A DNA stretch of 64,000 nt from a phage. A program made the position numbers and the translations under genes. Under the pieces are notes generated by a model. That model worked only from the letters and a program-made list of their open reading frames with translations. It was not told the origin of the DNA and made no database searches. The number at the start of each line of letters is the position of its first letter. Position 1 is the first letter of the stretch. The stretch is from NCBI GenBank assembly GCA_025611195.1, contig GCA_025611195.1_4718.2, one strand, 5' to 3'. This document shows, piece after piece, positions 3,987 through 45,647 of the stretch.

Positions 3987-4033
3987 AATAGCCTCGTGAA
4001 GGTGGATGGTACACCCATCCACCTTCCTCCATG

Positions 4034-4555
4034 TTAAAGTGCGTTCATTTCTTCAGGTGTGCGTACAGTGCGCGTGTTGGGATCGACCATTGCTGGTACG
4101 CCCGCAGGACATTTACGGACATCAATCCGCATCTCAGGCTCGATCGGACGAACGCGATACGTTTTACCGTCGTCGGTTAACACCGAAATGGTCAACGCTT
4201 GGTTCAATTCATTAACGAAGTTCACCAAACGCTGCTGCCCGCCTGCCGACCAGAAGTTGAGATCGGTTTCTCCGCTGAAATAACTGATTCCTTCGGCGGT
4301 CCCAATCGTGATTTTAACGATGCCCGGATAGTCACGAAGAAGGGGTGCCTGATAACCTTCATCTTCCGTATCCAATTTTACCCACGCGCCTCCCGTAGAC
4401 AAGCAGTTAACTTCCAAGGCGGTTGGCGCACTGACTTCTGCCGATGACCAGGTATACATCGTGCCTAGTTTAGCGTGTCCGGTTTCCAGCTCGCTGTAAT
4501 CCCAAGCGTGTGCTGATGCCGTAATAAAGAGGGCTGCAAGAAACAACTTTTTCAT
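4034..4555 (-). CDS. secreted/periplasmic protein with signal peptide
   Basis: N-terminus MKKLFLAALFITASAHA resembles a Sec signal peptide with AxA cleavage site. Confidence 0.55.
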   Translation of the reverse strand: MKKLFLAALFITASAHAWDYSELETGHAKLGTMYTWSSAEVSAPTALEVNCLSTGGAWVKLDTEDEGYQAPLLRDYPGIVKITIGTAEGISYFSGETDLNFWSAGGQQRLVNFVNELNQALTISVLTDDGKTYRVRPIEPEMRIDVRKCPAGVPAMVDPNTRTVRTPEEMNAL

Positions 4556-4610
4556 TCTTTTCGATTCCTATTAAAAGTGACCGATTTCTGTGGTCAGGAT
4601 TGCTAATACA

Positions 4611-5072
4611 TTAAATCTGGTTTTGTTTCCGTATTGCACGGTTACGTTTACGTTCTTGGTCTTTGACAGTACCAAGAAACTTCCTTAATTCTGACGGTTC
4701 GAGCGTACCCTCACGTACCACGCCGTTTTGTTCGATATGGTACGACCAATAACCAACTTCAGCTGTTAAAGATAACGTTGTTGGTTGCGCATCAGGCAAC
4801 GATCGGGGTGAGAAAATAAAGAGTAATTCAAAAGGCGTTTCTCGGCTGATGGTGGGACGGATACTAACGTCAAGCCCCTCCCATCGCTGCGGCTTAAATA
4901 TTCCTCCGGCGGCGACGATTGTCTCCGAGCGTTGGTCTACAAGCTCAGCTAATTCACGATCGTCATTGAAATAAATATCGTGAAGGATATCTGTGTCGAT
5001 AAAAAACCCGCGCTCCAAATCGTGACGAACAATTGAATTCTTCATTCTAACGCCTTTGTTGTTTGTTTTCAT
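4611..5072 (-). CDS. hypothetical protein (153 aa; start may be 5045)
   Basis: ORF track; alternative ATG at 5045 has better RBS spacing. Confidence 0.5.
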   Translation of the reverse strand: MKTNNKGVRMKNSIVRHDLERGFFIDTDILHDIYFNDDRELAELVDQRSETIVAAGGIFKPQRWEGLDVSIRPTISRETPFELLFIFSPRSLPDAQPTTLSLTAEVGYWSYHIEQNGVVREGTLEPSELRKFLGTVKDQERKRNRAIRKQNQI

Positions 5073-32133: not shown

Positions 32134-34723
32134 TTAGCAATGGTTGTTAGTTGCTTCTATTTCATCAAGATACGGTTCTACGTCATCGCCCTCCACGAAT
32201 TCGTTGAACCAACAGTCAATGGTAGAAATAACCGGTGACTGGTGTTCACATTTCTTAGATACCTTAAAAGGTACGTTATTATCCATCATACCGAGTTCGG
32301 GTCGAAAACGCCCGAAATGTTTCGCAGTCCAAATGTCTGGGACGATATGGTTGTTCATCGTGGTGTTCAGCATGAGTCGCTACCTCATACCCGCAGCTTT
32401 ACCTGCAGCTTCCGGTGTTACCGGAATGTCCAGAATACATCTTATCCATATTCCAAATGGAACGTAGGACTTCCGCGCTGGATCTCGCTTGAGACCACGT
32501 ATTCGTTGAACGTTCTCCTGAACGGAGCTTCGCTGCTGATCGAACATTGTCGTGTACGGTAGGCATCCCCGAAGGGATTGTCATTGAAGCCGCGTACATC
32601 CGCTACCTTGTTTCTACCTTATCGGTTCCTCTTACGAGGCGTAGCGGCCTTAGCCCTTCCCAGCAATTCACGGAATCCAAGCTCTTCCTTTCGGAAGGCA
32701 GGGCCTATGATTAAGCATCCCCGTCGCTGTTATCGACTATATCTTCATCCTCGTTGCGAGGAGTCTCCCGTTTGGGTCTGTGTTTAACAGAGCCTACTCT
32801 ACTCAACATCGCGTCTTTCGATAGTCTGTGAGCACACATCTTAACGAACATTCGTGGATTCCTAAACAGGTGAACGTTCTTGTTGAGATGCTTCGCTGCG
32901 GATTATTCCCGTCCTACCTCTTTTACCGTACCCAGTTCATTACGCTGGCCCTCATCTATGTCACCATGATGAGTTGGTGTGTAGTCCGATTACAGAAACT
33001 TCCCGTCAATTAGAGAGTTTTAACTACGTTCCTGTTACCAGAAACCAGATCCCGACGGTATCAATAAATCAACGTAAGTTATTGATTTAATTGAAAAACT
33101 GAAATCTGCATTATCTAAATCTTCAGTATGGTTCGCTACTCCATACCCGTACCTCATGTACTGCTTACGTCTTTCACGTAAGGATAGACTATATCTTTCA
33201 CCCTCAGCATTATCTGGTCGGGGCTCCCATTTCGGCGGTCAGATGACCGGTGGTTTCCCACGCCGCTTGGCCCTAACGCCCGTAAGCGATAGTCGTTGAG
33301 CACATCTCCGTTCTGGAGACTTCGCTGCGGATTCCCCAATCCTTGCCGCTTTTACCGTACCTGAATGATTAGTTCAGCCCCACGCTCTGTTCCCAGGCAT
33401 GGTTGGTGGACGAGGCTCTAAGTAGGTTCCCGCATTAGAGAGTTCCTCGTAACAACATTTCTGCGTTACTGGGCCTAACGACCCTTTCAAGATCATCACG
33501 CTTAACCCGATGGTGTTATCCTGCGGATCGCGTTTAACCTTGGTGATTTCAAGACATTGGTTACTGCTTCGGTCAAGTGATGGGTTTCGAACAAAGCCGC
33601 ACACAATCCCATCGAACGGTGTATCAGCAATAAGCTCATCATGCAGCTCGCTCATCATCGGATGATAATTACGGACATGTTCCGCAACGAACGCACGTGC
33701 TGCTCTCGGTGAATAACCGCGATGGAATAACTTGGATTGGATATGTTCTTTATTGGTTAAAGTAAATGGTGCGTATGGGAAATGCAGATGATAATAACGA
33801 TGGTTCGCTGTTATCGAACTGATTACGGTACGCGTGGTGAATGGATGTAATGTACCTAATATGTTTTTACGCGTGATACCTTTCTTCTTACCGATGAACT
33901 CATCGAAAATCGCCGCGTGGTATTGCAGCAGCTTCAATTGCACTTTCGCCATCCAGTTTTCTTTCTTTCTGGCGCTCAAAGGTGTTGTTGGATGATAGAT
34001 ACTATTCAGTGTACCAATAGCATCGATCGCACCTTCCATTTTGCTATCTGCATAACGGCCGGTCGGTGTATTTTCGATAACGAACATCATGGCCGCAGGA
34101 AAGCTGATATACTGACTGAAGAACTTATCACGATGGATACGGATGAATTCTCGTAGCGTGTCAACTTTCTCTGTGTTCTTCGGTCCACGTAATGTGGGTC
34201 CTTTATACAAGATCTCCATGATGCGATCGAAGTTCTGTATAAAGCTATTTACACCACGCCGTATCCCGAATACATCAAATTGCTGCTCCAGATAGTTCTT
34301 GAGTTCAATGGGTCGTTTTACATTTGGACGGTAACTGGCATCAATGAGCCACGTCATCGTTTCGAAGCTTTTGATATTCAACTCGCTTGCCAGCACGAGA
34401 TGGACCAACGGGTTAATGAACGCATCGATTCCTTCAGGGACACGCGCCCAGACCGTCGAACGAATCTCCTGTTCTGCTGGGTAGGTTACAACCGTTTTAC
34501 AGTTTGGACACACCGTGCCGAGCAACTCACCGCGATTGTAGAAACCACAACCACATTGTGGCGTGATATCCAACGTATCGCTGGAGTAAACACGGGTGAT
34601 AAAACTGTTTAATTTCTTCTTCTCTTCGACGACTTTTGTATCGTAATCGTTCAACAAAATCGGCGTAAAGGGAAGTTCTGCGAGCTGTCTATCGAAACTC
34701 ACGATATCGAGCATGATGGCCAT
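32134..34723 (-). CDS. multisubunit RNA polymerase beta-prime, N-terminal subunit; proposed 4 exons (34723-33490, 33120-33102, 32726-32714, 32367-32134) split by three group I introns
   Basis: Exon 1 has the Zn-finger (CGCG..CPNC) and RNPSLDRSSNQCLEI (cf NRAPTLHRLGIQAFEP); micro-exons encode LDNADF and DGDA; last exon NTTMNNHIVP (cf QMAVHVP); exon lengths 1234+19+13+234 = 1500 nt keep frame; unspliced ORF ends in intron read-through. Confidence 0.5.
32368..32713 (-). other. group I intron C (ORF-less, about 346 nt)
   Basis: P AATTGCTGGGAAGGG with Q ATCAGCAGCGAAG (compensatory GCTG/CAGC), R CAACGAATACG with S AAGATGTATTC (compensatory P7 change); 3' tail homologous to intron A. Confidence 0.45.
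32727..33101 (-). other. group I intron B (ORF-less, about 375 nt; 3' domain unusually short)
   Basis: P AATTGACGGGAAG, Q AATCCGCAGCGAAG, R GTGCTCACAGACTATCG, S GAAGATATAGTCGATAAC; only about 8 nt between S and the proposed 3' splice G. Confidence 0.4.
33121..33489 (-). other. group I intron A (ORF-less, about 369 nt)
   Basis: Minus-strand elements P AATGCGGGAACC, Q GAATCCGCAGCGAAGTC, R GTGCTCAACGACTATCGC, S AAAGATATAGTCTATCC in correct order; possible P1 pairing exon GAUCU with GGGUC; boundaries approximate. Confidence 0.5.
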
Positions 34724-40347: not shown

Positions 40348-40371
40348 TAAAAAGAACCGATCCAGCCGAAG
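40348..40371 (-). terminator. intrinsic terminator-like hairpin with minus-strand U-tract
   Basis: Minus strand CCGATCTGGCTTCGGCTGGATCGG followed by TTCTTTTTAT, downstream of 40577-40990. Confidence 0.5.
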
Positions 40372-40576
40372 CCAGATCGGTTTAAAGGATAATAACTGAC
40401 AGAAAGATATCGATGATGTTCGTGAAACAAGATCTTCTCTCGTGTACAATGATGCCAGATCAGAGGGAGGTTGTAACACGAGAGGTGGTTCGCCAAAGAA
40501 GGAATAAAAACACGAACCTATCTTATTTCACTGATGGCACTAACCACTCAAAATATATAGTACTGTATGTAAAAGT

Positions 40577-40990
40577 TTACTGATTAATCAAGTCGTTAGC
40601 AACAATCTTGGTGTAACCTGCCTGATTAAGAATTTGATTAATTTTTGTCATGTCGGTTGCATCCTCGATAACGATGCTGGGTTTATAGATCAGCGTCTTG
40701 GTAACAACGATTGTACTCTCCTTAATCCAAGGAATCCCTAAAATTACATACTCGCCATCAGCTGTGATGACCTCGACGTAATTGTACTTCGTCGGATCGT
40801 TCGGTACACTCGACGGGAGCCGGGAATAAATCTGTTGGTGAATGGCGTCCACATCACGGCCGTTACGTACAGCGGTACGATAATTGTACACCGCGCTAAT
40901 TTCTACTCCGTTGAAGTTAACCCCAAGTTCTGGGGCGTACACATCAAAACTCACAACAGAGCCAATCTTTTCTAAATCAGAAGCTGGCAT
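40577..40990 (-). CDS. hypothetical protein (137 aa)
   Basis: ORF track; followed by terminator hairpin 40348-40371. Confidence 0.55.
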   Translation of the reverse strand: MPASDLEKIGSVVSFDVYAPELGVNFNGVEISAVYNYRTAVRNGRDVDAIHQQIYSRLPSSVPNDPTKYNYVEVITADGEYVILGIPWIKESTIVVTKTLIYKPSIVIEDATDMTKINQILNQAGYTKIVANDLINQ

Positions 40991-41001
40991 AATAGCATCC
41001 T

Positions 41002-41523
41002 TTATTTAAAAATGTATTCATACCCGAAAGTCGTCGCCGACCAGACCCGGATAGATGATAGTGTTCCACCACGATAAAACGTTTTTGTGAACTCCATATC
41101 CTGGACAACACGATAATAAACACGTCCGATAATACGCACGATAAGATATCGTGATAACGATCTCTCCTCGCAGTACTCATCGATAAAGTCATCGTCGATA
41201 TCTGATAAGACAACGTCTGCGATTTCTTGCAGTAGATTCCTCATCAGCATCTGCCTTCCTTCGGTACCCCACCCAGACAAACAGTAGTCGTCTTCTGCTT
41301 GACTATAGATGTCGTTAACCGCCTGTTCGAGCAGTTGCTCAAGATAGTAGTCATCGCGCTTTATAACGTGGCGACGGCGCTCAGAGGCGTATTTTTCCAT
41401 CCTGTGTTTCTCTTGTTCGGCGTATGTATTAACGACGCCACAGTCTTTTCTGGATCGTCCCACAATGCGCGACGAAAACTGGATACTACCATAACGGTAG
41501 GATAGATTTGTACGACCTCCCAC
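41002..41523 (-). CDS. hypothetical protein (start uncertain, possibly 41400)
   Basis: ORF track; overlaps upstream ORF by about 160 nt unless an internal start is used. Confidence 0.4.
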   Translation of the reverse strand: MGGRTNLSYRYGSIQFSSRIVGRSRKDCGVVNTYAEQEKHRMEKYASERRRHVIKRDDYYLEQLLEQAVNDIYSQAEDDYCLSGWGTEGRQMLMRNLLQEIADVVLSDIDDDFIDEYCEERSLSRYLIVRIIGRVYYRVVQDMEFTKTFYRGGTLSSIRVWSATTFGYEYIFK

Positions 41524-41849
41524 CCGTAACGATGTGTGTTAGTCGTACGTCCGACATTGAACAGACATAACTGATTTAAGAAACAGAGCTGTATCTTTGT
41601 AAACAACACTGTGTCTTCACGTTTAACGTATCCGAGGATATAGGCATTCTCGAACGCCTCGCGTGACAAGACGGGGCGATTAAGGTACCGCAACGCTAAT
41701 ACCAGCAACGTTGTTATACGCAACGGATCTTCTGGGTCATTCATGGTGCTCAGCTCTGCTTGTAACCAGTCGGGGATAGTAACCGTCAGACGATAGGTAT
41801 CTGTTCCACGATCAACCACATTCAACGTTGAAAAAGGCAACATATCCAT
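41361..41849 (-). CDS. hypothetical protein (162 aa)
   Basis: ORF track; part of a chain of overlapping minus-strand ORFs. Confidence 0.45.
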   Translation of the reverse strand: MDMLPFSTLNVVDRGTDTYRLTVTIPDWLQAELSTMNDPEDPLRITTLLVLALRYLNRPVLSREAFENAYILGYVKREDTVLFTKIQLCFLNQLCLFNVGRTTNTHRYGWEVVQIYPTVMVVSSFRRALWDDPEKTVASLIHTPNKRNTGWKNTPLSAVATL

Positions 41850-42387
41850 GAATTCCTTCTATCTCGAGGTTGTTCTCGCAGGTCTTGGGTAATAACCCAC
41901 TGGCCGTTAACATCTGTGTCATCGAGTAATCAAAGCACGGAAATATAAGGTTAACGGTTTCCTGGATCGCGTCAACATAACTATAAATGGCTTCATAATA
42001 CTCACCATCATGATCTACGCTAACCAGTTCCTGACACAGTTCTTCGCTTATCATTTCATATACCGGCGGATACCACGATTGAAATGGTCGCTGCATACGT
42101 AACGACCAGTACTCGTACGTCGTATACTGAAGCACGTCATAAGCCGATACGTTAATGCGGTCGAAGAAAGCATACTTGTCCATATGCTGATACAACATCG
42201 CCAGTACGGTTTCCAAGCACACCGATATCCGCACGCCACCATCTTTCCCGTTAAGAAAATTAGGTTTCTGCCGATAACGCACAAATGCCGACGGCTTTGA
42301 TTGTATTATTCCACCACCAACCATAACGTCATACTCGTATCTAACGTAAAATTGAAATGCCACCAATCTTCTACACGTGGGATCCAC
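41812..42387 (-). CDS. hypothetical protein (start possibly 42324)
   Basis: ORF track; part of overlapping chain. Confidence 0.45.
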   Translation of the reverse strand: MDPTCRRLVAFQFYVRYEYDVMVGGGIIQSKPSAFVRYRQKPNFLNGKDGGVRISVCLETVLAMLYQHMDKYAFFDRINVSAYDVLQYTTYEYWSLRMQRPFQSWYPPVYEMISEELCQELVSVDHDGEYYEAIYSYVDAIQETVNLIFPCFDYSMTQMLTASGLLPKTCENNLEIEGIHGYVAFFNVECG

Positions 42388-42791
42388 GTACGAAGAATCT
42401 GGTTAACTTCGCTTCGCATCACCGATAAACGACAACGAAAGTCGAACTTCTCATCATGACCGTAGTCTTCATGCATGAAAACTTCGTCCAAAACGAACTC
42501 AAGTTGCGTGTCTACATCACGACCGGAGATATTTCGTTTGTACAGATACAGTTCAATCGTGTCATAAAGCAACGTATGAATATCATAATTTCCGTTCGGC
42601 GAGAAATAAGGTAATCGCTCATCGAACATCGAAAACAGATATTCACTGTAGTTTAATAACGGGATGATGTACCGACGTCCGGTCTGTGGTGTGCGAATAT
42701 GTATCGAAACCTGACTTGGACGCGGAATAGCCGACGGCTTAGAATCGTCTCTCTGAAATTGCTCTAAAGATCGCAACAAAGGTGGCCGCAT
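42306..42791 (-). CDS. hypothetical protein (161 aa)
   Basis: ATG start confirmed at 42791; overlaps upstream ORF by 53 nt. Confidence 0.45.
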   Translation of the reverse strand: MRPPLLRSLEQFQRDDSKPSAIPRPSQVSIHIRTPQTGRRYIIPLLNYSEYLFSMFDERLPYFSPNGNYDIHTLLYDTIELYLYKRNISGRDVDTQLEFVLDEVFMHEDYGHDEKFDFRCRLSVMRSEVNQILRTWIPRVEDWWHFNFTLDTSMTLWLVVE

Positions 42792-43368
42792 TGTAACTCT
42801 CCAACGCCCAATTGTAAGGCCCTTCTAACATGTGTTCCCATACGTGAATAAACTCACTACCGAAGACAGGCTCCAGCGCCATGGTGAGATTCGTAAGTTC
42901 TGACGCGGCCGCATGGTAAGCATCAACGTGTCTTTCCATTGACGGATCGTCTTCATTGAAAATACGTTCTGTGTCGCCAGCCCGTTCAATAAGTTCGGTA
43001 ATGAGATCTGTCCATGTTTCGTGGCACGTCATCATTTCCTGTTCTCGACTTAGTATTCCGATGTCTGCGTGTACGCTGGACTCGAACCGGTCGAAAAGGA
43101 CCCGAAGAACATGCACCTTGTCGATGTATCTCACCGTTATCCAAGAAAGCGGTTGCCATCGACTCAGCGTCCATCCGGTACTCGGGAACCCCAAACTCAT
43201 ATAGTACGGGTTGCACGGGACCGAAGACGGAGCGACGCTGTTTAAATCGTTCCTTAATGGCAATGCCCTGTTTAATGTAAATGGGTTCATTGGCGAGTCG
43301 TTTCGCTTTTTGTTTTGCGTGAGCCAATCGAAGTTCTTCCAATTGCCCAAGCCATTCAAATTGTTCAT
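42739..43368 (-). CDS. hypothetical protein (start uncertain)
   Basis: ORF track; N-terminal 126 codons overlap the preceding ORF in another frame. Confidence 0.4.
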   Translation of the reverse strand: MNNLNGLGNWKNFDWLTQNKKRNDSPMNPFTLNRALPLRNDLNSVAPSSVPCNPYYMSLGFPSTGWTLSRWQPLSWITVRYIDKVHVLRVLFDRFESSVHADIGILSREQEMMTCHETWTDLITELIERAGDTERIFNEDDPSMERHVDAYHAAASELTNLTMALEPVFGSEFIHVWEHMLEGPYNWALESYNAATFVAIFRAISERRF

Positions 43369-43963
43369 CTGTTAGCTCCTGGGGACGTTCAACAATCGCG
43401 CCAGACGGGCAGACATTGATCGTGATGTTAATTGATGGCATCGCCATCACTTGAGGGTTGCTATTACGTACGCGGACAACATGTTCGGTTGCTGATTTAC
43501 GATCAACGCAATACTCTGTTTCTTGGAACTCAAATGCTTTTAACGGCGTTGGTTTTGTTTGACGTTTCTTAACACGACCAAGATCAACAATATAGGCATA
43601 ATCACAAACACGTTCTATTCCGTAAATACGGTTATCCGACCAGTTCTTACCAAACAGCTTGTTGTGATGATAAGACAAATATTCGGTTACCATACCCTGA
43701 ACAACATCGAAGTCTTCTCGAAAATCAGGTTGATACCAAATCGGACCGAGAATATCTGCGAACGATTCATGACGATATCGAGGATCATGTCGAGTCCAGG
43801 GCATTCTCTGATTAAGATCGAAATCCACCAACAATTCCGTTAATTGCAGTTTTTCCTTCGGAGAAAGCTGGCGTTGATGATGCAAACTCAAGCAATCGAT
43901 AAGTGGTAATGAAACCCACGATGCTAATGTGTACAAATCGATCCTGGCTAGTCTCTTGGTCAT
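42986..43963 (-). CDS. hypothetical protein (325 aa)
   Basis: ORF track; Arg-rich C-terminal 40 aa looks atypical, possible frameshift into next ORF. Confidence 0.45.
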   Translation of the reverse strand: MTKRLARIDLYTLASWVSLPLIDCLSLHHQRQLSPKEKLQLTELLVDFDLNQRMPWTRHDPRYRHESFADILGPIWYQPDFREDFDVVQGMVTEYLSYHHNKLFGKNWSDNRIYGIERVCDYAYIVDLGRVKKRQTKPTPLKAFEFQETEYCVDRKSATEHVVRVRNSNPQVMAMPSINITINVCPSGAIVERPQELTDEQFEWLGQLEELRLAHAKQKAKRLANEPIYIKQGIAIKERFKQRRSVFGPVQPVLYEFGVPEYRMDAESMATAFLDNGEIHRQGACSSGPFRPVRVQRTRRHRNTKSRTGNDDVPRNMDRSHYRTY

Positions 43964-44054
43964 ACTCTTTTCCTAAGTCCCCATTGTTTATACACACGAT
44001 ATCTGGGAATAGTTAAAATATACGGCGTAAAACGAAATAGGAGAGTTTCTGGCA

Positions 44055-44375
44055 TCATTTTCTCCCTCTTCGAATACCACCGATACCTCTTCGATCCAAG
44101 ACGTCCCAAGCACGCTTTATTTCCTCCTCCGTCGCTCTGGTATCTGGAGGAACAACCATAACACAATCGTGCAACGGCCAATGCGCGGGTCTGGGGTCAG
44201 CGAACAGATTATCCCATTCAAGCGTCCATTCTTTCTTTGAACGATTATAGTAGAGCGTAAGATACGTGTTGGTATATGCTGGGTAACCACGCATAACTTC
44301 AATATTCTTACGATCCTGGCGTTCCTGATTCCAGTCGTTAAATCGTTTTCTTATTTTATCCCACCACTCTCCCAT
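44055..44375 (-). CDS. hypothetical protein (106 aa)
   Basis: ATG at 44375 with AGGAGAAA RBS; the longer track ORF would read across hairpin 44398-44419. Confidence 0.5.
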   Translation of the reverse strand: MGEWWDKIRKRFNDWNQERQDRKNIEVMRGYPAYTNTYLTLYYNRSKKEWTLEWDNLFADPRPAHWPLHDCVMVVPPDTRATEEEIKRAWDVLDRRGIGGIRRGRK

Positions 44376-44397
44376 GCTTTCTCCTACGCGGCATAAA

Positions 44398-44419
44398 AGC
44401 CTGCCCCGAAGGACAGGCT
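44398..44419 (-). terminator. stem-loop AGCCTG/CAGGCT
   Basis: Inverted repeat between the zinc-ribbon gene and 44055-44375. Confidence 0.4.
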
Positions 44420-44428
44420 CGATAGAAC

Positions 44429-44629
44429 TTAATAACCATCCAATTTCAATGAAGGATGGTTGACGATATGTGCGTGTTTTGCTGGGTCGTATGGCTGATA
44501 TGGAAAATAGCCATGCCACTGACGACCTTGGCATTTCGTACACAAGAACCGACCATCGCCACGCTGATTCTCGTAAGCGAGTTCAGTACTATCAACATGA
44601 CCGCAACGTTCGCAGATAAACAGCGACAT
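44429..44629 (-). CDS. small zinc-ribbon protein (66 aa)
   Basis: CERCGH..CTKCQG two CxxC pairs. Confidence 0.5.
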   Translation of the reverse strand: MSLFICERCGHVDSTELAYENQRGDGRFLCTKCQGRQWHGYFPYQPYDPAKHAHIVNHPSLKLDGY

Positions 44630-44666
44630 AGCGCATCTCCATTCACTTGAACTTTTTGGTTCGGTG

Positions 44667-45647
44667 TTAGAAAAGCAAGAAACCGCTGTTCTTCGCTTCC
44701 GCTACAGTTTCGTCACCAACTTTCGGTGCCTGTTGACGCGCGTTACGATGTTCGATGTAACGTTTCGCTTCGTCAGCGATTTGTTTGATAATACCCCCTA
44801 AACGATCGGTACTTAAAACAAACGACGTCGCTTCACGAATCGGGCTGCTTTCAGGCACAAAACCATCACAGCTGTAAATAGCGTTAACACCCATGACTTT
44901 AGTCGCGTCTTTCGGATAAAGCGTACAGAAAGCAATAGGACTATCGTTCTCTTTCGTCCAATCGTATCCCATGAACGTATTCAGTTCGGTGATCGTTGGT
45001 TCCAAACCGGTAACACGCGGATGGTTTAAGAAGTTTTCCAGGTCGGCGCTGTCAAGACGACGGTTCTCGCCAGAAAACAGAACACAAAGCTGGCTAATAA
45101 CAACCTGCACGTCCAGGTTGACATCCTGCTCCGATTTCCCATTTTCGCCATTCATGTGATAGCTAACAATCACCGGACGTTTCAATCCTTCTGCAGCTGC
45201 CATCAGTCCTTTAAAGGTACGATCGGCGTTGATCGTTTGACGCTCATCATCGAACGAGGCAACGATGCAACACACCACACGTTCACCGCGTTCCAGCAGG
45301 TTAGCAACCAGCGCAGGACCTGCAACAGAACCTGAACCACCGCTCAGACTAAAGACCACGATATTAAATTTACCTGGTGTATGCTTATTCAGAATACCTG
45401 GGATTTGTGAACAGATCAGTTCAGCGTTCTCATCACGCTTCTTACCAGAACCGTCTAACTCACGACCCGCCGCATCTTTAAAGATGTAGATATGATCGTC
45501 GTCCAGTGCGCTATCGCGTAGGTTAGCCCGGCTGGTATCAACATACGTCATGCTGTGTAATCCTTTCGCGACTTCGCCTTCAAACGCTGAGCCGATTTCG
45601 CCACCACAACCACCAACAGCCCAAATATGTACTTGGTTCTCTTGCAT
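44667..45647 (-). CDS. phuZ: tubulin/FtsZ-like GTPase (PhuZ-like)
   Basis: N-terminal IWAVGGCGGEIG glycine loop and SLSGGSGSVAGP (cf tubulin/FtsZ GGGTGSG signature); AGGAG RBS. Confidence 0.55.
   Translation of the reverse strand: MQENQVHIWAVGGCGGEIGSAFEGEVAKGLHSMTYVDTSRANLRDSALDDDHIYIFKDAAGRELDGSGKKRDENAELICSQIPGILNKHTPGKFNIVVFSLSGGSGSVAGPALVANLLERGERVVCCIVASFDDERQTINADRTFKGLMAAAEGLKRPVIVSYHMNGENGKSEQDVNLDVQVVISQLCVLFSGENRRLDSADLENFLNHPRVTGLEPTITELNTFMGYDWTKENDSPIAFCTLYPKDATKVMGVNAIYSCDGFVPESSPIREATSFVLSTDRLGGIIKQIADEAKRYIEHRNARQQAPKVGDETVAEAKNSGFLLF

Follow-up and report, generated by a model that had tools for sequence, protein, structure and literature searches.

Six overlapping reading frames in a Goslar-like jumbo phage are very probably genuine, separately translated genes in a conserved chain

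The DNA considered here, hereafter the window, is a phage sequence of 64,000 nucleotides (nt), contig GCA_025611195.1_4718.2 of GenBank assembly GCA_025611195.1, and our subject is a chain of six minus-strand open reading frames (ORFs), O1 to O6, which occupies positions 41002 to 43963 and in which each frame overlaps the next. The segment from 40500 to 44700 aligns with Escherichia phage vB_EcoM_Goslar at 95.2% identity, ungapped over 4.2 kb; Goslar is a nucleus-forming jumbo phage (Chimalliviridae) with a genome of 237 kb. O1 to O6 correspond one-to-one to Goslar_00198 to Goslar_00193 of the GenBank record (MK327938) and to HOV27_gp237 to gp242 of the RefSeq record (NC_048170), and all six counterparts are annotated coding sequences, each a 'hypothetical protein', in the same frames as in the window. 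With the starts favored below, the six genes are as follows.

42986-43963, minus strand: O1, 325 amino acids (aa), Goslar_00198/gp237; ATG 43963 with AGGAAAAGAG as ribosome-binding site
42739-43368, minus strand: O2 in its long form, 209 aa, from ATG 43368; Goslar_00197/gp238 is annotated as 98 aa from ATG 43035
42306-42791, minus strand: O3, 161 aa, Goslar_00196/gp239; ATG 42791 with a GGAGAG site; 53-nt overlap with O2
41812-42324, minus strand: O4, 170 aa, Goslar_00195/gp240; ATG 42324; 19-nt overlap with O3
41361-41843, minus strand: O5, 160 aa, Goslar_00194/gp241; ATG 41843; 32-nt overlap with O4
41002-41400, minus strand: O6, 132 aa, Goslar_00193/gp242; ATG 41400; 40-nt overlap with O5

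Taken as maximal ORFs, the six run from 42986 to 43963 (325 aa), 42739 to 43368 (209), 42306 to 42791 (161), 41812 to 42387 (191), 41361 to 41849 (162) and 41002 to 41523 (173), in frames 0, +1, +2, +1, +2 and +1, with overlaps of 383, 53, 82, 38 and 163 nt in that order. A chain of six frame-shifted, overlapping ORFs had been described in an earlier note made from the sequence alone, and it was reproduced here, with overlaps of 38-383 nt in the chain and of 1-23 nt elsewhere in 50 kb of Goslar. Some of the larger figures are products of choosing the longest ORF. The 82- and 163-nt overlaps depend on GTG 42387 and GTG 41523, and when the conserved starts are used 82 nt becomes 19 nt, 163 nt becomes 40 nt and 38 nt becomes 32 nt. 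The 53-nt overlap of O2 with O3 is real, and the 383-nt overlap of O1 with O2 may be. With its database starts the Goslar annotation has overlaps of 50, 53, 1, 32 and 40 nt within the block, and since the remaining same-strand overlaps in 50 kb of that annotation measure only 1, 4, 17, 20 or 23 nt, the cluster is unusual for this genome.

Two sets of relatives were available for comparison. The first, the Goslar group, consists of the window and seven others: IMG/VR contigs L006 and L007, Goslar itself (L008), Logan contigs L009 to L011 and ENA contig L017. These assemblies are up to 14% diverged, with 80-417 substitutions each in 2,962 nt, and in L009-L011 the O1 protein is 85% identical. The second set was reached through an exhaustive HMMER search with O1, which returned two distant homologs, P0007 (334 aa, 32% identity) and P0008 (280 aa, 29% identity); the metagenomic contigs that carry them, L013 and L014, represent the distant lineages.

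Within the Goslar group the reading frames behave as six independent genes. Across the eight genomes there were no indels in 41002-43963, and the indels of the compared region are confined to intergenic DNA and to the gp199 gene upstream of O1. All six ORFs are intact in 8 of 8 genomes, the only change to a stop codon being an O1 end three codons earlier in L017. In any one stretch the variable sites concentrate on third codon positions of a single frame, and at every junction that frame gives way sharply to another; counted over the third positions of the three frames (A3:B3:C3), they are distributed 80:29:15 in the O1-only part of O1, 0:32:4 in O2, 9:4:50 in O3, 12:66:17 in O4, 14:6:64 in O5 and 4:35:7 in O6. 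In the O2/O3, O3/O4, O4/O5 and O5/O6 overlaps the density of variable sites is 0.02, 0, 0.07 and 0.03 (1, 0, 2 and 1 sites), versus 0.13-0.21 in single-coded sequence, a near-invariance of the kind expected of double coding.

The layout is also found in the distant lineages. Gene order in L013 and L014 is that of the window (PhuZ, a Zn-ribbon gene, the homologs O1h to O6h, SH3DP, DNA polymerase), and BLASTP matched O2 to O5 with syntenic ORFs in L013 and/or L014, protein identity across the block being 22-44%. O3 has homologs in L013 (44% identity) and L014 (36%), O4 in both contigs and O5 in L013, where O6 also has a weak homolog (E = 6e-4). The frame order in L013 is 0,1,2,1,2,1, as in the window; overlaps between gene calls in L013 and L014 reach 19-41 nt, and those of O3 with O4 and of O4 with O5 are 19-35 nt by gene calls in all three lineages. 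The earlier note had suggested aligning the region to related phages, and that alignment finds O1 to O6 separate and in order in the Goslar group and in L013 and L014.

Successive frame changes and long overlaps between maximal ORFs would also be seen if frameshift mutations had broken up one or two larger genes into O1 to O6, or if assembly or sequencing indels had produced them, and none of the six proteins has a Pfam or PHROG family (no Pfam match past the cut-off; no PHROG match with E below 0.1). We regard this as extremely improbable. Our reasoning is that: (i) eight independent assemblies from different samples share an identical frame layout, which speaks against sequencing indels; (ii) every ORF has a strong third-position bias in its own frame, and (iii) the six ORFs are kept separate in two lineages at the low identities given above, both of which speak against a decaying larger gene; and (iv) when the six-protein concatenate was run by tblastn against INPHARED, Goslar was the sole phage with a detectable homolog, fused or otherwise. 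A word-indexed search with the same concatenate gave no match, and scans of viral contigs and metagenomes with PhuZ, O1 or the O1 alignment as query returned nothing beyond Goslar-group genomes. Tandem duplication was considered as well and set aside, no paralogy being detected among O1 to O6. On comparative grounds O1 to O6 are, in our judgment, real and separate genes under purifying selection with doubly constrained overlaps. Of the possibilities raised before, that of real overlapping genes with internal starts is the one supported by the conserved starts, the frame-specific selection and the separate ORFs of the deep lineages. It is, we believe, very probable that the six overlapping frames are genuine, separately translated early genes of a Goslar-like jumbo phage whose layout has been kept across distant relatives.

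At the four downstream junctions the starts can be assigned with little difficulty. ATG 42791, ATG 42324, ATG 41843 and ATG 41400 are invariant among the relatives compared, and for O3 the start together with its Shine-Dalgarno (SD) sequence (ATG 42791, GGAGAG) is invariant in 6 genomes. The O4 start annotated in Goslar (codon 42304-42306) is ATA in the window and L006, ACA in L017, GTG in L009 and L011 and GTA in L010. ATG 42324, 18 nt further upstream, is invariant, and the gene call in L009 gives a protein of 170 aa; judged from this alignment, gp195/gp240 should start at the equivalent ATG. The upstream O5 candidate, ATG 41849, is ACG in L009-L011, and an in-frame TAA at 41418 in L009 and L010 excludes the longer form of O6 from GTG 41523. 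Several of the downstream starts in the block have weak SDs, that of O4 having an energy of -2.2 to -3.2 kcal/mol in all lineages versus a genome median of -6.4, and such weak SDs would fit translational coupling. No X_XXY_YYZ heptamer was found at the two -1 junctions, where only the relaxed forms GAAAAAT and CAATTTT occur. As a separate observation, G-AAA-AAT at 41391-41397, in the O5 frame just after the O6 start codon, is an invariant, relaxed -1 slippery-like heptamer leading into the O6 frame; it lies in doubly coded sequence in any case, and nothing indicates that it is used.

The O1/O2 junction is more complex. Two features of it, which are needed in what follows, are these.

43112-43179, minus strand: core dual-coding zone with constraint on the O1 and O2 frames alike; the most invariant part of the block
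43376-43380, minus strand: AGGAG, an SD-like motif 7 nt upstream of ATG 43368 and inside the O1 codons Gln-Glu; -6.6 kcal/mol

Over the 3' end of O1h the +1 frame is open and conserved in both L013 and L014 (O2-frame translation over this end: window TGWTLSRWQPLSWITVRYIDKVHVLRVLFDRF; L014 TGILLNQWQPLCWVTVSYVNKLMVLRFMYEEA; L013 TAMVIRSFQAISWMTMKYVKPVNIIRLLLDRF), and over the first 20 codons from 43179 its BLOSUM score is 44 (L013) and 72 (L014), versus 17 and 23 for the O1 frame. Among the Goslar-group genomes, O2-frame third positions account for 10 of the 14 variable sites in 43111-42989 and for 4 of the 5 in 43111-43036; the earlier remark that the Arg-rich C-terminus of O1 is atypical and the overlapping frame protein-like is borne out by this pattern. 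From 43179 to 43112 the density of variable sites is 0.074, versus 0.208 where only O1 is encoded and 0.186 where only O2 is. The conservation of the +1 frame in L013 and L014, taken with the third-position pattern, implies that O2 extends at least to about 43179, and we take it as demonstrated by these alignments that O2 extends upstream of its annotated ATG at 43035. Both frames are under purifying selection, each being conserved against L013 and L014 at 43179-43120, and the overlap layout is kept in diverged relatives, as in an overprinted gene pair.

The annotated start deserves consideration in its own right. O2 could be a short protein of 97-98 aa whose translation begins at ATG 43035/43032 once ribosomes have finished O1 at 42986 and moved back some 45 nt, in which case the conservation of the +1 frame further upstream would be a side effect of constraint on O1. 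The ATG-ATG with AGGAA just upstream is present in 4 of the 8 Goslar-group genomes, and the Met of O2h as called in L013, 11 nt past the O1h stop, aligns exactly with 43035/43032. Against this, the same positions are ACA-CTG in L009-L011, where O2 is nevertheless intact, and ACG-ATG in L017; four of the five variable sites upstream of the annotated start sit at O2-frame third positions; the +1 frame scores two to three times the O1 frame across the deep lineages; and O2h of L014 has about 24 extra N-terminal residues homologous to this very stretch. We consider a short O2 highly unlikely. The alignments indicate that gp197/gp238 reaches at least the equivalent of 43116/43134, and it probably reaches the equivalent of 43368, which would give 209 aa, about twice the annotated length.

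Where O2 begins is a question of which candidate start is preferred. Besides ATG 43368 there are ATG 43170, GTG 43134 and GTG 43116, and none of the candidates near 43179 combines conservation with a good SD upstream. Six relatives have ATG 43170, which is ACG in the window and L006; these two genomes, both lacking the ATG, show 14 differences in O2, of which 11 are synonymous, and purifying selection thus persists in its absence. The two GTG codons have SD energies of about -3 kcal/mol, and for the whole set of candidates near the constrained O2 frame the values span -3.0 to -5.7 kcal/mol among Goslar-group genomes and +0.7 to -4.1 in L013 and L014. Further upstream, the open +1 frame begins with stop-x-ATG and an SD 7-8 nt upstream in three lineages, with energies of -6.6, -9.5 and -9.3 kcal/mol; of the first out-of-frame ATGs inside Goslar genes, 4.8% reach -6.6 and 1.5% reach -9.3 kcal/mol. 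The SD-ATG site of L014 lies about 10 codons away from the sites of the other two lineages. In the window the SD and ATG 43368 fall within 12 consecutive invariant O1 third positions (43397-43364, 8 genomes). Because a strong SD and ATG head the open frame in three lineages and there is no good candidate near 43179, we favor ATG 43368 as, most probably, the start of O2 (209 aa, 383-nt overlap). Peptides specific to the head of this long form would be NFDWLTQNK and NDSPMNPFTLNR, and peptides lying upstream of the annotated start would be VLFDR and FESSVHADIGILSR.

O2 alone among the six has no conserved ATG and SD near the onset of constraint on its frame, and this is the circumstance in which a programmed frameshift has to be weighed. 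A +1 shift near the end of O1, at CCT-TTT-CGA (43099-43091) or in the region 43180-43120, would yield an O1-O2 fusion of about 405 aa beside unshifted O1, and O2 would then need no start of its own. The frame relation of O1 to O2 is indeed +1, the junction region is unusually invariant, and in TTT-CGA/AGA a slippery Phe codon is followed by a rare Arg codon. An automated filter for +1 slippery sites was too permissive to be informative and we relied on manual inspection; this nucleotide comparison of 43200-43090 in the three lineages found no conserved homopolymeric or re-pairing +1 site, and the TTT_G, GGG_G, CCC_G and TTT_C codons of the window, from O1 to O2, are missing at the aligned positions of L013 and L014. 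Furthermore: (i) constraint on the O2 frame starts about 80 nt upstream of the TTT-CGA site; (ii) conservation of the O1 frame runs about 12 codons beyond the onset of O2-frame conservation; (iii) O1h of L014 ends in TAA-TAA and its O2h start, as called, is downstream of that stop; (iv) an SD and ATG are present upstream in the O2 frame in all lineages; (v) the homologs are never fused; and (vi) no relevant Rfam element was found. With a conserved ATG at the other four junctions as well, programmed frameshifting, one of the explanations raised in the earlier note, seems to us very unlikely.

The part of O1 that lies over O2 has a character of its own. Residues ~283-325 form the Arg-rich tail encoded over O2, and the last 40 residues of the protein include 10 Arg. 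AlphaFold2 (AF2) models O1 with a predicted local distance difference test (pLDDT) score of 70-90 for residues 1-130 and below 40 for residues 247-325. O1h of L014 stops (TAATAA) at the equivalent of about 43120, and in L013 and the Goslar group the protein continues for a further 35-45 codons. In L017 (positions 4001-4975 of a 249-kb ENA contig) the early O1 stop results from CGA to TGA at the window equivalent of 42995-42997, showing that the extreme end of the tail is dispensable. The 'RPVR-QR' shared by the O1 tails is the other-frame reading of the conserved O2 residues 'DRF--SV'. Taken together, the tail is a weakly constrained run-on over O2 and predicted to be disordered. A further metagenomic protein, P0010 (325 aa, repetitive), matches only the Arg-rich tail, at residues 287-317 and in 5 stretches; the match looks like low complexity and not homology.

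In the model we favor, O1 to O6 would form a co-transcribed block specific to Goslar-like nucleus-forming jumbo phages, set between PhuZ and the SH3DP and DNA-polymerase genes, in which every gene would be translated separately, with a frame and a start codon of its own, the start lying within the 3' end of the gene before it. The four downstream ATGs, often with a weak SD, would most likely draw on ribosomes still engaged on, or just completing, the upstream gene. O2, starting from ATG 43368, would open with a poorly constrained stretch of about 63 codons, lying in the +1 frame within O1, followed by a conserved helical part (from ~43179) that would be overprinted by the weakly constrained, Arg-rich O1 tail. 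Both the exact O2 start and the mechanism of coupling are what we infer from this arrangement.

Several observations weigh against a long, coupled O2. Codons 1-63 of the long form show no selection in their own frame (a phase of 20:8:4, as in O1-only sequence), cannot be aligned between lineages and have AF2 pLDDT below 35, being predicted to be disordered; a model of long O2 built from two sequences reached a pLDDT of 45.7, too poor for a fold search. Given the O1 protein, the openness of the +1 frame is only weakly unlikely (P = 0.15, 0.59 and 0.32), and in the window and L013 the SD and ATG could be by-products of the codons for a conserved O1 motif (P-Q/E-E/D-L-T-D-E). Two lineages have an ATG at 43170 or beside it, and O1 third positions are again invariant from 43214 to 43181, just upstream of that codon; this fits a shorter O2, of about 143 aa, equally well. 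The numbers are also small, there being only two deep lineages and two independent SD sites, and the proposed coupling is read from geometry and weak SDs. RNA folding around the O2 SD was unremarkable (z = -0.6).

With these points in view, a fuller version of the long-O2 model is offered tentatively, as something we rate at somewhat less than an even chance. It holds that, in every lineage, O2 would be initiated at an SD-ATG some 190-380 nt within O1, the start having been replaced independently in L014, and that a PhiX174-style +1 pair would have been kept over deep divergence. The disordered head of O2 and the basic tail of O1 would be expendable and serve mainly to tie together the expression of two early proteins, and the six-gene chain would be an obligatorily coupled module.

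The arrangement may be set beside three known kinds of system. Translationally coupled operons typically have stop/start overlaps of the ATGA or TAATG type. O1 to O6 resemble these in being co-directional, with no internal terminator and with weak downstream SDs, and differ in that each preceding gene runs on for 19-53 nt (possibly 383 nt) past the next start, and not for 1-4 nt. Programmed frameshift genes include prfB (+1), dnaX (-1) and the G/GT tail-chaperone genes of phages. The resemblance here consists in two successive frames and in O2, as annotated, lacking a robust conserved start; the difference is that O1/O2 has no conserved slippery sequence or stimulator, that the homologs are unfused and that O2 has its own SD and ATG. 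Overprinted same-strand genes are known from PhiX174 (D/E and A/B), lambda (Rz/Rz1) and the lysis gene of MS2, which O1/O2 resembles in that a +1-frame protein is started inside another gene. As in the small phages, synonymous change is suppressed in the overlap and one frame is odd in composition and predicted to be disordered (here the Arg-rich O1 tail and the N/S/P-rich O2 head). Unlike those cases, a Goslar-like genome of 237 kb is under no obvious size pressure, and the overlaps of O1 to O6 are partial (tail over head) and not nested, forming a chain of five boundaries. Overlapping and probably coupled phage genes are thus of an ordinary kind, and this case is unusually long, chained and deeply conserved. 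The general concept of overprinting has been treated elsewhere (PMC6195259).

These results bear on the reference annotation of a model nucleus-forming phage, in which the start codons of gp195/gp240 and gp197/gp238 are corrected, and the corrections are relevant to cloning or tagging of these early genes. They also describe long out-of-frame overlaps that have persisted through a long span of evolution in a phage genome of very large size, where genome compaction cannot explain them; this points to coupling of expression as the selective force. Finally, the O1/O2 pair offers a clean test case, as the candidate O2 start can be abolished by a single base change that leaves the O1 protein unaltered.

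The block is bordered by the following features.

44667-45647: PhuZ (tubulin), flanking the O1-O6 block on the side where a small Zn-ribbon ORF and gp199 also lie
44055-44375, minus strand: gp199/gp236 ortholog, 106 aa, upstream neighbour of O1
40577-40990, minus strand: gp192/gp243 ortholog, 137 aa, SH3DP; begins 11 nt beyond the O6 stop, with no further gene between it and the terminator
40355-40382, minus strand: intrinsic-terminator-like hairpin with a 12-bp stem and a T run, closing the unit; Goslar has an annotated terminator at the equivalent place

The gp199/gp236 ortholog is probably the first gene of the O1-O6 transcription unit. Its maximal ORF (44055-44543) would encode 162 aa and overlap gp200 by 115 nt, and a TGA at 44489 in the Goslar frame implies that the real gene is the 106-aa form from ATG 44375. 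In L006 a 189-nt deletion (44131-44319) falls inside gp199. There is no homolog at the matching position in L013 or L014, for which reason gp199 appears to be a dispensable accessory gene. At the other end, the gp192/gp243 ortholog matches the Pfam family SH3DP (PF20287, E = 1.3e-36), and the DNA polymerase gene lies beyond the terminator-like hairpin on that side. In the supplement of a 2026 cryo-electron microscopy preprint on Goslar, YP_009820876.1 (gp243) appears as a protein of the inner baseplate, modelled in 24 copies, and the Pfam name ('SH3 fold domain associated with phage DNA polymerases') may reflect gene neighbourhood and not function.

Between 44055 and 40577 no minus-strand terminator was found, the strong one being that at 40382-40355, and promoter-like hits within the block were at chance level in a scan that excludes promoters of phage RNA polymerases. 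In published Goslar RNA-seq, reads fall on gp237-gp243 with counts of the same order; upon ChmA knockdown these genes change by a log2 fold change of +0.03 to +0.6, and structural and late genes by -4 to -7 (10.1101/2023.09.20.558163). The retention of gp237-gp243 reads on ChmA knockdown places the block in a nucleus-independent, early-type class. The six accessions are absent among the entries listed in the accessible part of a virion mass-spectrometry supplement (10.64898/2026.04.21.720040). For O1 the best sequence match in the PDB has E = 0.12 and the best Foldseek match of its model E = 0.76. Our guess is that O1 to O6 are early, non-virion accessory proteins, possibly subunits in fixed proportion.

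Care is needed with gene numbers when this block is sought in the literature. The RefSeq locus tags of Goslar jump from gp186 to gp247 and then descend, which accounts for the differing gp numbers between Goslar papers. The 'gp193' and 'gp196' of recent Goslar papers are, in RefSeq numbering, a RecA homolog and a virion RNA polymerase subunit, and were rejected as candidates for O1 to O6; 'gp193' is a late RecA homolog in the study that uses RefSeq numbers (10.1101/2023.09.20.558163). In a study with GenBank-style numbers (PMC9891218; ChmA gp189, PhuZ gp201) 'gp193' is nucleus-associated; if that protein were Goslar_00193, the phage nucleus would be where the O6 ortholog resides. Elsewhere in Goslar, at 169269-169645 (about 33080-33456 of the window; Goslar annotation only), RefSeq places a group I intron non-coding RNA beside an HNH endonuclease gene, and this region abuts a gene annotated as an RNA polymerase beta-prime fragment.

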